64,000 nucleotides of DNA, taken from Gammaproteobacteria bacterium. Lineage in GTDB: Bacteria; Pseudomonadota; Gammaproteobacteria; UBA6429; Thiohalophilaceae. The position numbers and the translations under genes are program-made. The stretch is taken from NCBI GenBank assembly GCA_026197095.1, contig JAPHTF010000061.1:5418-69417 (forward strand). Direction: 5' to 3'. The notes beneath the pieces are model-generated. The model was not told the origin of the DNA and did no database searches. It saw only the letters and a program-made list of their open reading frames with translations. Shown here piece by piece: positions 25,631-30,642 of the stretch. How positions within the stretch are numbered: the first letter of the stretch is position 1; each line of letters opens with the position of its first letter.

Positions 25631-27532
25631 TTATGGTGATGGTGTACTACTGCCTGGTGTTGAAGGTGGTGAAGCACTTCCGCCAGCCGACTCAATTCTA
25701 AAACCCAATGCTCTTAATGCTCGTTCAGCGGGGCCTGAAAATCTACCCGCACGAATTATCAACTCAGGCATATCTAAAGTTACACCGCCCCATGCCTCAC
25801 CTAATTGATGAGCAAACTTTGCAGCTTGCCAAAGTTTAATAATTTGCTTCCATTTACGATGAGTTGCAGAGTTACCTAAAGCAGACCAATTAATTGTTGT
25901 GCCTGTTTGCGAGCTTTGTGGATCTAGAATTTTCCAGGCCTCTGGTAACCCCAACTCACCTGTCGTAGTTTCAACAGCTCTTAAAACACCATGAATTGTG
26001 TCAACAAGATGATCAAACTGAATCTCTACCGTTCGTGGTGCACCAGTAACATGTATACCTCCAGGCAAAGGATAAAGATCCGGTTCAATAGTAATTTTAT
26101 TAATATTACCAATCGTTAAAAGTGAGCCACCCATTTCCATTGCCATAATAGAACGGTTTATTTCTTCACGTAGACCTACAAGATTTCTCAATAAGCCATT
26201 TGTATCATCACCATTAGTTAACACCGATTCATATTGACGCTTAAACCTGTCAACAAGGTTAATAAATTCCTGACGAACGGCTTGATCACTGAAGCCTCCT
26301 TCATCAAGATGTTGCTCAATTGCTCGTACGATTGAGTCAGTTGACCCTTCCAGTAAATTTATGCCTGAACGTATAGGTAGTGCCAGGTTAGACATTGCAG
26401 AACGTAATGGCTCAGGTAAATGTGATACTGAGTCTGAAACTCTTCTTAATGACTGACTTAATGGCGATGCATCTTCCAACATTTGAAGACGTCTTGATGG
26501 TGGTGTTCTTAGCAATTCTGCATGAACATCTTTTCCCTGCCGATATAAGTTCAGCATACCTAATAGTGCTTGTGGTGTTATATTTTGTGGTAACTGTAAC
26601 CGAGATATCGAGATATAAATGTCAATCATTATTCCGGACTGTAATGATGTAAAAATGTCTGAAAATATATGGTTAGCACCCGGCATATCTGCAATACGAT
26701 TAAAACTTATAAGCATCTGATTAAGCGAACCTGAACTCCAGTTCTGAAACATTCGGTAAATTGCTGTACGAGAAATATTTCTTGCCGGTTCAAAAAGTTT
26801 TATGACGCCACGGATGGCATCAAGGTTCCATCTTGTCCAACCACTAAATTGTTGACTAAACAATCTAACAACGCCACTTCGAACTGAATCAGGAACATTT
26901 GCAAGAATACTTAAAAGCTGCGGATGAACAGTATTTAATTGGTTTTGTATAACACTACGTTGAGCATCATTAAGATGGCCTTCTCCCAGTGTTCTCTCTA
27001 GTGGTGTCAGCGGTCTTTGTGGATCAATATCAACAGGTCTTGAGGGTGTTACATCATGTGGTCTTGTTACTGGTGCATCGGGTGTTACCGCTGTACCTCG
27101 TGTCGAGCCAGGCTGAATTATTTGTGCTGGAGGTGGACCAGGTTCAAGATTTGTAAGTCCACGTGCTTTTTCGGTTGGACTATGCAAATCACCAATATGT
27201 TGGCGTAACTCTCCAAATAAATTTCTTAACTGGGCTGGTGTTACAGTTTCACCAGTACCGTTTAAAACACTTTGGTATACGCTCGAAAGTTGATCACGAA
27301 GATTAAAAATACTATCGAGCCGCTGTGACATCTCCTGAGCATAGCGTGAACTAAAATGTTCAACCGCTCCTGTTAAGCGACGCATCAGGTATTGATCAAC
27401 TAGCCGGGTATTTCCGCCGGTATCATGAAGCATCTGTTGTCGAATACGTTGTAAGCCATCAAACTGACGTGCCAGACTAGCTGGATTGATGTCCAAATTC
27501 ACAGATTGATTACCGATACGAATTCTAGGCAT
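25631..27532 (-). CDS. Hypothetical 633-aa protein (ORFan; candidate cargo or tail-length/assembly factor)
   Basis: Long intact ORF in the operon. Pro-rich linker (LEPGPPPAQIIQPG...PVDIDPQRPLTP) and Ser/Pro-rich C-terminus. No catalytic motif recognised. Confidence 0.55.
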   Translation of the reverse strand: MPRIRIGNQSVNLDINPASLARQFDGLQRIRQQMLHDTGGNTRLVDQYLMRRLTGAVEHFSSRYAQEMSQRLDSIFNLRDQLSSVYQSVLNGTGETVTPAQLRNLFGELRQHIGDLHSPTEKARGLTNLEPGPPPAQIIQPGSTRGTAVTPDAPVTRPHDVTPSRPVDIDPQRPLTPLERTLGEGHLNDAQRSVIQNQLNTVHPQLLSILANVPDSVRSGVVRLFSQQFSGWTRWNLDAIRGVIKLFEPARNISRTAIYRMFQNWSSGSLNQMLISFNRIADMPGANHIFSDIFTSLQSGIMIDIYISISRLQLPQNITPQALLGMLNLYRQGKDVHAELLRTPPSRRLQMLEDASPLSQSLRRVSDSVSHLPEPLRSAMSNLALPIRSGINLLEGSTDSIVRAIEQHLDEGGFSDQAVRQEFINLVDRFKRQYESVLTNGDDTNGLLRNLVGLREEINRSIMAMEMGGSLLTIGNINKITIEPDLYPLPGGIHVTGAPRTVEIQFDHLVDTIHGVLRAVETTTGELGLPEAWKILDPQSSQTGTTINWSALGNSATHRKWKQIIKLWQAAKFAHQLGEAWGGVTLDMPELIIRAGRFSGPAERALRALGFRIESAGGSASPPSTPGSSTPSP

Positions 27533-27537
27533 TATCG

Positions 27538-30500: not shown

Positions 30501-30642
30501 GTTTATTAACGACTTCCTCCTGACTTTTAGCAAATGCTTTCGTTAAATTCCTTGAAATCATGACATCAATATTTGACTGCTGATTTAGAATTGAATTTAT
30601 TCCTATTCTTATCTTTATTGGAATATCAACATGAACTGGCAT
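27538..30642 (-). CDS. Hypothetical 1034-aa protein at the tape-measure position, with two hydrophobic helices and a basic C-terminal region
   Basis: Follows sheath, tube and a small ORF, as phage tape-measure genes do. Gly/Arg-rich segment GNDGGDGSGRRQGRRERGG. Hydrophobic segments FFLFTGLILLAVICAPLAVAVGAAVATY and LGLALSFIPYAGRVLG. Confidence 0.55.
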   Translation of the reverse strand: MPVHVDIPIKIRIGINSILNQQSNIDVMISRNLTKAFAKSQEEVVNKRGGYTNVIINDPAFNYTGSGLVKLSHTHKIELQQRIKDLIKKISSLHNSNDLSGIVQPLTSRAEERIDESRLREVFGVYGIPSYNGNGETEHVDVSESNPPQVVYRYYTFGISHQNVLQNFRAARELLASKYQAATEQFGNTSANVSGLLWKIGQNSYSFYIVNNSTGAWRTDSFVTQTYHAERRGTQVQWGESRDDLPARISYATYHNISEAENLFRQFHAGLIRNEIQDLFPRQETMAREIYRTLLDQAVDLEIQRRTAMVTQQNPGGLIVINFSNTSYICMTTLSVQHSWPGQATLYPVMEPVEIPAGSQQGNDGGDGSGRRQGRRERGGIAPWGSGEGQGQGAIYPALPASLFGLRLSCQPYMGEPSVDEMGQVGEYIKGLIQEIATRLQMSPCDRAGNFLLNAAQVIGSRASDIGNYAAINESNEAGFFSQSPHASGNMGEVNFVPSASPAIQFIRFLAGTVPLITRLSHILDRTYTLPEHSARFSGHAQNNPYFWMLRFHYDLRQDMELGVGTMFIMTCRVLMLQFLLTSKKAIDARIDNFTSYAPLFEELMIGEMADIHELRTLHGRLTRQIAEERGQRGVASDVGEWVMLNWTATTSGISDLFQGYNPDEPDIVDQGFIKRNNVTIGITDNTGHRWTEQQLQTTLAIRQNVAESVDPLIKQIRDIPELLNRFRQNKNAIRSELWSLLHEMRSSNDEVRRKVINDWTYGFEASKIQEHLQTATIPGTRFPLQGIHLQAHLAIGEFFRGDTYYAMGINSLFNRKLGLESLKEFFLFTGLILLAVICAPLAVAVGAAVATYEYSKAQERLQVFRSMIHPEVVMSQAELEAELFAAELGLALSFIPYAGRVLGTSARVGKVVIRQGIRGSARVAARYGRMSTRSIGRSLTREGAHQVGRSIRTRFTRQLAEQLKHGFVYAVARELVEDQLFDVLLQKLLFGPALQRIYSDFQDYAPGVTSGSGTIMQEPQALEHMHIMQSEPE

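Follow-up and report, generated by a model that had tools for sequence, protein, structure and literature searches.

What do two large, unannotated proteins do at the point of a phage-tail-like operon where one tape-measure gene would be expected? The question is raised by a stretch of 64,000 nucleotides from a gammaproteobacterium (assembly GCA_026197095.1, contig JAPHTF010000061.1, positions 5,418 to 69,417), referred to below as the window. Two adjacent genes of this window, g05 and g06, encode P0001 (1034 aa, 27538..30642) and P0002 (633 aa, 25631..27532); both lie on the minus strand, as does the operon to which they belong. A first-pass annotation, made from the sequence letters alone, had placed the two genes at the tape-measure and cargo position and had noted a linker, two hydrophobic segments and an Arg-rich tail in the larger protein, with Pro-rich and Ser/Pro regions in the smaller one; all of these features are present. 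In the reading favoured here, to which slightly more than even probability is given, P0001 and P0002 form the lumen/cargo pair of a contractile injection system (CIS) that is rare, very divergent and spread horizontally, in which a membrane-inserting protein resembling a tape measure or the tape-measure-related effector Tme accompanies an adaptor-borne effector. Both kinds of protein are known, namely tape-measure-related CIS proteins and polymorphic effectors. Undescribed in the literature surveyed are a CIS lineage invisible to profiles, an N-terminal module independent of DUF4157, an adaptor-bearing effector slot inside a structural operon, and a free-standing tape-measure end module. The choice, loading and delivery of CIS cargo are known for few lineages, and many effectors stay unannotated because they carry no signatures.

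The kind of machine has to be considered first. The two genes belong to a 14-gene operon (33574..16636) situated downstream of a gene for a sigma-54 activator (34087-35016). The evidence supports a contractile phage-tail-like system, rare and very divergent, as the first-pass annotation had proposed. Baseplate_J was reached above the Pfam cut-off by orthologues of the g12 baseplate J (gp6-like) protein (20182..21633) in two related loci, L005 and L001, with 48.5 and 30.8 bits. Around it, weak signals for sheath, gp25, Dit and Gp5/Vgr follow the expected gene order. The sheath-like protein (392 aa, 31397..32575) matches DUF2586, Phage_sheath_1C and Gp18_domIII_N weakly; among its orthologues, five of ten give a weak Phage_sheath_1C match, DUF2586 reaches 4.6e-5 at best and Gp18_domIII_N is again weak. 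The tube-like protein (145 aa, 30934..31371) is assigned by position and size, and its match to Hcp1 stands at E=1 only. Directly after the effector slot, g07 (166 aa, 25106..25606) is a Dit-like or tube-initiator candidate (Dit_like, E 2e-4). Orthologues of g11 match gp25/Sheath_initiator weakly, and the g09 profile finds a Gp5/Vgr OB domain at E 0.079.

No protein of the operon reached the Afp/PVC hallmarks Phage_sheath_1, the Phage_T4_gp19 tube, the DUF4255 terminator or an AAA+ ATPase, and the sole AAA+ protein near the operon is the upstream sigma-54 activator. According to the eCIStem report (PMC8213781), these same families, when detectable by Pfam, define the extracellular CISs (eCISs) of the Afp/PVC type. 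With no hallmark family detectable, the lineage therefore falls outside the reach of profile-based eCIS catalogues. No match to the sheath protein was obtained from phage genomes with tblastn, and PDB profile searches with the sheath, tube and spike proteins, P0001 and the C-terminal domain of P0002 returned nothing significant.

The 14-gene order recurs with nearly equal gene sizes in Micromonospora. In tblastn searches of one-genome-per-species collections, the order of the whole operon was kept in at least 44 of 47 loci, which span about eight phyla. The set was gathered with P0001 as the query, so that P0001 is present in every locus by construction. Related loci occur in Actinomycetota, Chloroflexota, Planctomycetota, Acidobacteriota, Armatimonadota, Myxococcota and Pseudomonadota; they are carried by many Micromonospora species and by isolates or metagenome-assembled genomes labelled Litorilinea, Anaerolineaceae, Defluviicoccus, Fimbriimonas, Polyangiaceae, Aquisphaera, Solirubrobacterales, Vicinamibacterales and Actinophytocola. 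Between phyla, tblastn comparisons show 50-72% identity for the sheath-like, tube-like, g07 and g12 proteins (sheath-like 57-66%, tube-like 55-67%), and g07 keeps 55-72% between loci. In the order of the host, the sheath gene profile matches one of 75 genomes, the source genome alone, and the locus is therefore regarded as an acquired island. The sequence comparisons point to a recent and wide horizontal spread of the operon.

P0001 is a core gene at the tape-measure position of this operon. It is the largest ORF, it is located between the tube gene with g04 and the hub genes, and its start and stop are coupled to its neighbours. The same placement, the largest tail ORF between the tube gene (with a small ORF) and the hub genes, is found in the window and in at least 44 loci. 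Among 5.8 billion proteins, 22 homologues were found (983-1107 aa, E 1e-85 to 0), none of them named. In the resulting 23-member alignment the C-terminal two-thirds is strongly conserved, and so is the N-terminus with its PRGGY and FxWxG motifs. These motifs belong to an N-terminal module (residues 1-140, 30223..30642), which in the AlphaFold2 model consists of a coil stretch and helices at 15-46 and 66-97. The model was built from the homologue alignment and is of medium confidence, with a mean predicted local distance difference test score (pLDDT) of 68.5. An alpha/beta domain follows (residues 149-355, 29578..30198), modelled at pLDDT about 80-90 and without a fold match. It is succeeded by a disordered Gly/Arg-rich linker (residues 357-405, 29428..29574; pLDDT below 50), the core of which, GNDGGDGSGRRQGRRERGG, occupies residues 361-379 (29506-29562). 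Residues 419-1030, the C-terminal 60% of the protein, are predicted to be mostly helical.

Such a protein could have a structural role and nothing else, as a tape measure or a scaffold for assembly, its hydrophobic segments serving assembly in the tube with no membrane role. This explanation is quite unlikely, although the position, size and conservation of P0001 fit it, as does the helical C-terminal part, P0001 is the sole ruler candidate in the operon, and tape measures are enriched in its BFVD list. The Gly-rich linker differs in length by tens of residues among the homologues (alignment columns 430-560), whereas the sheath and tube proteins are nearly invariant. Invariant Cys, Pro, His and Gly residues and a folded alpha/beta domain would also be unusual in a ruler, and tape-measure profiles fail to recognise the protein. 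The BFVD matches in question, best at E 0.016-0.8 and rich in tape measures and minor tail proteins, have TM-scores of about 0.1 and are not significant. P0001 does share gene position, size, helices and hydrophobic segments with phage tape measures such as lambda gpH, P2 gpT and HRTV-28 gp35, but it differs from them in the absence of a profile or fold match and in its folded domain and disordered Gly-rich linker.

Several conserved features of P0001 lie in and around a predicted helical hairpin. Just ahead of it stands the motif GIHLxxHxxIGEFF (residues 787-800, 28243..28284), in which G787, H789, L790, H793 and F800 are invariant in all 23 family members and E798 is kept in at least 90%; two His residues one helical turn apart and a nearly invariant Glu could bind a metal. 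A hydrophobic segment (residues 824-853, 28084..28173) contains the invariant C839 and the nearly invariant P841, and the Kyte-Doolittle hydropathy over a 19-residue window peaks at 2.75 for residues 832-850. In the model this segment would form the tip of a hairpin of two helices, 804-838 and 840-867. A second, weaker and amphipathic hydrophobic helix (residues 884-904, 27931..27993; consensus EAELFAAxLGLALSFIPEAG) leads to an Arg/Lys-rich tail (residues 905-960, 27763..27930) with periodic Arg, Arg-rich from about residue 909. The homologues have kept the hairpin, its C-P-P kink and the basic tail; per 70 aa, the tail has 10-17 Lys and Arg against 2-8 Asp and Glu in 19 of 21 scored homologues.

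A conserved hairpin with a strongly basic segment behind it would obey the positive-inside rule, and no signal peptide is found in P0001. Both features would be in keeping with an anchor in the inner membrane of the producer, on its cytoplasmic face, which would tether the baseplate while the machine fires outward, as in the type VI secretion system (T6SS), the cyanobacterial thylakoid CIS and the CisA-assisted CIS of Streptomyces. This main rival to the lumen/cargo reading is considered unlikely. The host of the window is presumably diderm, as TamB suggests, which would suit an anchor. The P0001 architecture is the same in monoderm Micromonospora and in diderm hosts, which speaks against one. 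No lysis or secretion genes were seen within the operon, and a bulky folded N-terminal domain would fit a tube poorly, both of which favour anchoring; known anchors, however, are not encoded at the tape-measure position in coupling with genes such as g04 and g06, and the hairpin arms are short, with no periplasmic domain in P0001. The N-terminal module is moreover common to Tme-like effectors, and the published relatives of these are reported to associate with baseplate proteins or to be packaged (PMC11126660, PMC13277306). CisA of Streptomyces coelicolor gives a precedent for a membrane protein needed for CIS firing (PMC12237407). Compared by description only, P0001 resembles CisA as a putative membrane-associated protein that could decide the action of a cytoplasmic CIS. 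Whereas CisA has a bitopic helix and a domain outside the cytoplasm, and anchors of the CisA or T6SS type are bitopic or polytopic with genes outside the tube-to-hub block, P0001 has a single short-arm hairpin, lacks a signal peptide and any second domain beyond the hairpin, and is encoded at the tape-measure position.

The single firm remote relationship of P0001, by sequence comparison, concerns its N-terminal module. Residues 1-139 share homology with the N-terminal ends of 22 large Tme-like proteins of 1400-1600 aa (hhalign 99.1%, E 1.5e-18), and the rest of P0001 has no detectable homology to that family. The large proteins' middle region and their C-terminal domain are in turn common to two proteins with an N-terminal eCIS_core. 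No match to eCIS_core/DUF4157 (PF13699) was found in P0001, in P0002 or in the whole genome. A simple split of a Tme-like protein into P0001 and P0002 was considered and rejected, as only residues 1-139 of P0001 and the C-terminal domain of P0002 match and the middle regions do not. The pore-forming toxins AhlB, XaxA and MakA in the PDB list of P0001 reach E 1-3 only and were taken as noise.

Tme is among the closest described counterparts. As reported in PMC11126660, the Tme of the Streptomyces davawensis CIS (BN159_7576) combines an N-terminal DUF4157 with transmembrane helices, by prediction, and an endonuclease at the C-terminus; spike and tube-initiator proteins were co-purified with it. 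Proteins built as DUF4157, a very long linker and a toxin in eCIS loci are recorded by Geller et al. (PMC8213781). P0001 resembles Tme as the largest ORF, just upstream of baseplate genes, with hydrophobic segments and long helices; further likenesses are an enzymatic C-terminus, here a putative nuclease in P0002, and a CIS clade scattered over distant phyla. Because the C-terminal domain of P0002 occurs in two eCIS_core proteins and the N-terminus of P0001 is homologous to a related large family, this domain network ties both window proteins to the Tme/DUF4157 class. The layout differs, as neither protein nor the genome carries DUF4157/eCIS_core, the functions are divided over two or possibly three genes, and the probable fold in P0002 is of the PD-(D/E)xK type and not the EndA-like fold reported for Tme.

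A two-gene arrangement has been described in Streptomyces lividans, where the helical protein Sle1, for which a transmembrane hairpin of helices is predicted, is carried inside the particle and passes to lipid membranes; the DUF4157 protein Sle2 is its partner (PMC13277306). Compared by descriptions alone, the pairs agree in having one hairpin protein and one partner and in showing variable C-terminal functional domains. In contrast to the window pair, the Sle partner with DUF4157, Sle2, is small, and the Sle genes lie upstream of the sheath gene and are divergent, whereas g05 and g06 lie between the tube and hub genes. A further difference is that the conserved hairpin protein of the window is not the variable one. 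Phage tape measures, Tme and Sle1 are all thought to be expelled and to insert in membranes.

The small ORF ahead of P0001 adds a further link to tape measures. The first-pass annotation had called it chaperone-like, an assignment that gives way to a resemblance to the extreme C-terminus of phage tape measures. In g04 (91 aa, 30642..30917), which resembles the last ~60 residues of these proteins, the GIALVHEGEVVLPAAG motif precedes a strand and a helix. The g04 stop codon and the P0001 start overlap (TAATG), and g04 is kept at 36-53% identity in 10 loci. A Pfam search with g04 found nothing. By hhalign it matches residues 352-402 of the 424-residue tape measure of the myovirus HRTV-28 (75.7%, E 2.4e-5). 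The motif reads G-I-A-L-V-H-E-G-E-V-V-L-P-A-A, with a counterpart, AGIVHRGEFVF, near the end of lambda gpH; the end of P2 gpT has a comparable stretch from which the motif is absent. These alignments are suggestive of a free-standing tape-measure C-terminal end module, not a tail assembly chaperone. Phage tape measures, by contrast, do not carry their C-terminal motif in a separate upstream gene. A strand-plus-helix module linking g04, P0001 and P0002 was also examined, and its homology is unsupported (hhalign <=1%, E 0.05-0.2).

P0002 is built differently, as a modular protein in an effector slot. Its N-terminal adaptor domain (residues 1-140, 27113..27532) is common to the same-slot genes of related loci; a Pro-rich linker (residues ~128-177) joins it to the C-terminal domain, and a Ser/Pro tail ends the protein. 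Word-indexed single-sequence and profile searches with P0002 found P0002 itself alone, and tblastn matched three other loci over the first ~130 residues only. An exhaustive phmmer search yielded 86 relatives, each matching the N-terminal or the C-terminal part, about 30 of them the N-terminal part alone. Pfam, PHROGs and NCBIfam contain no family for either protein (one sub-threshold chance match), but with these relatives P0002 is not the true ORFan that the first-pass annotation had taken it for.

Across related loci the slot is always filled, and its gene usually overlaps the g05 stop by 4 nt. The N-terminal 150 aa of the products of 45 loci form one cluster of 44 and one outlier, and the C-terminal parts fall into five unrelated clusters. 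Known toxin domains are found at some of these places. In an Anaerolineaceae locus (L006) the slot protein carries Tox-SHH (32.4 bits, cut-off 22.7), with a weaker match in a Polyangiaceae locus (L036); in both, a SUKH-1/SMI1_KNR4 gene of ~300 aa is inserted between the Tox-SHH slot gene and g07 (L006:3588-4493, L036:3727-4626), these immunity-type genes scoring 34.3 and 49.3 bits. In the Fimbriimonas locus (L005), Ntox4 (32.8 bits, cut-off 25) is appended to the common ~490-aa body. By sequence, the slot shows the pattern expected where polymorphic effectors are encoded. The division into tape measure and cargo offered by the first-pass annotation accordingly stands, with a conserved core protein bearing a membrane-type hairpin and a polymorphic slot, both between the tube and hub genes.

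The slot recalls the polymorphic toxins (Tox-SHH, Ntox4, with SUKH as immunity) in carrying several unrelated C-terminal parts on one N-terminal domain. It departs from them in its site within a structural operon, between tape-measure-like and tube-initiator-like genes, in the lack of an adjacent immunity gene in the window, and in a commonest class without a known toxin domain. An alternative explanation is that the slot genes, g06 among them, encode structural parts that evolve fast, such as hub-proximal or receptor-facing ones, and not cargo. A structural part would explain a gene that is always there and always overlaps the end of g05, a single ~490-aa body without a recognisable toxin domain in 39 of 45 loci, and a window devoid of an immunity gene. 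It is nevertheless very unlikely, given Tox-SHH with SUKH and Ntox4 in orthologous slots, five unrelated C-terminal classes on one N-terminal domain, and a C-terminal part shared with DUF4157-type effectors beyond the lineage.

That C-terminal part is where the activity of P0002 would be expected in a cargo protein. Residues ~140-620 match the C-termini of proteins of 1200-2030 aa with E values down to 5e-88 (phmmer), as well as a few P0002-like proteins. Two of the proteins with this domain bear eCIS_core, namely P0046 (E 1e-29) and the 5'-truncated ORF of metagenome contig L052 (E 1.9e-11); other large proteins with the domain start with a P0001-type N-terminal module. The domain had no sequence or profile match in Pfam or the PDB, and no Pfam toxin domain was found in P0002. 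A first metagenome scan and two scans of viral contigs for it were empty, a metagenome scan with a broader pattern found three loci, and it was not found in five genomes with the CIS lineage.

A model of P0002 residues 170-633 could be obtained from four sequences at medium confidence (pLDDT 69.2; 80-90 in the alpha/beta domain). It shows a helical part, which with the Pro-rich linker corresponds to residues ~141-465 (26138..27112), and then an alpha/beta domain with a probable PD-(D/E)xK-type nuclease fold (residues ~466-620, 25673..26137). Residues E457, D507, E521, K560, Q563 and K566 are invariant, and the PD-(D/E)xK assignment was proposed from them ahead of the fold search. In the model E457 lies in a helix before the sheet, D507 at the start of a strand, E521 in the next strand, and K560, Q563 and K566 in the helix that follows. 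Apart from Thr523 at the motif-III lysine position, this arrangement is canonical for a superfamily with an alpha-beta-beta-beta-alpha-beta core and catalytic E ... D ... (D/E)xK residues, to which RecB/Cas4-type members add a Q on the next helix. The top Foldseek matches in the PDB are all PD-(D/E)xK nucleases (the Cas4-family ACE1, NucS, EndoMS, Card1 and AddB), EndoMS with probability 0.98 and a root-mean-square deviation of 3.5 A over 111 columns. On this modelling, the chances that the C-terminus of P0002 is a nuclease are about even. The first-pass annotation had seen no convincing motif in either protein; HExxH is indeed absent from both, and the conserved acidic and basic residues of P0002 are what it had passed over.

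The mechanism proposed for the lumen/cargo pair is the following. The ~140-residue N-terminal module of P0001 would dock to the complex of spike and tube initiator, in the role played by DUF4157 in Tme-like effectors, and the long helical C-terminal half would occupy the tube. Contraction would then expel P0001, and the hairpin could bury itself in a membrane, leaving the Arg-rich helix to lie along the surface. P0002 would couple to the machine through its N-terminal adaptor (residues 1-140), travel along, and deliver its exchangeable C-terminal part, here the probable nuclease.

Several results weigh against this proposal. For P0001, a match to tape-measure families was looked for with Pfam, PHROGs, NCBIfam and PDB profile searches and none was found, hhalign comparisons with P2 gpT and lambda gpH stayed below 1%, and the best Foldseek match in the PDB had E 0.23, with nothing significant. 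The predicted folded alpha/beta domain of ~200 residues in its N-terminal third would be bulky inside a tube and would not be expected of a simple ruler, and the hairpin arms, at ~14-15 residues each, are short for a full membrane span. For P0002, the nuclease matches stand at E 0.1-0.4 and come from the four-sequence model, and the canonical motif-III lysine is replaced by threonine (E521-T-T523). In the window, P0002 is not followed by an immunity gene, the gap to g07 being 24 nt. The C-terminal domain itself may be a carrier and not the toxin in some proteins, because two DUF4157-type giant proteins, P0046 (residues ~1660-2030) and L053 (894-2063), bear an additional conserved domain of ~370-390 aa after it. 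In these two, the actual toxin may be this extra domain, which has no Pfam match.

A more elaborate form of the lumen/cargo reading would have the tape measure split into three co-translated pieces in the tube, with g04 as the C-terminal plug, P0001 as a translocon that inserts in membranes and docks by a module independent of DUF4157, and P0002 as an adaptor-borne polymorphic toxin. This elaboration is doubtful. If it holds, the N-terminal module of P0001 and the adaptor of g06 would be loading tags, to which any C-terminal payload might be fused. The locus offers short candidate loading domains, namely an adaptor of ~140 residues found with at least five payloads and an N-terminal module standing in the place of DUF4157. 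Should the adaptors act as tags, they could be of use in programmable protein delivery. The locus also provides a clean genetic test of a tape-measure-like protein as ruler, translocon or anchor.

Two small proteins of the region deserve mention. The first small ORF of the operon (33608-33856, 82 aa) had no tblastn counterpart in 48 related loci and is specific to the copy in this genome; its product could be a regulator, or a candidate for an immunity or accessory role. After the spike-like gene, a protein of 111 aa (22163-22498) starts with MAKVLTTGSLMICGHGG; it had no match in Pfam, and it may resemble the PAAR-like DUF4280 spike-tip proteins.

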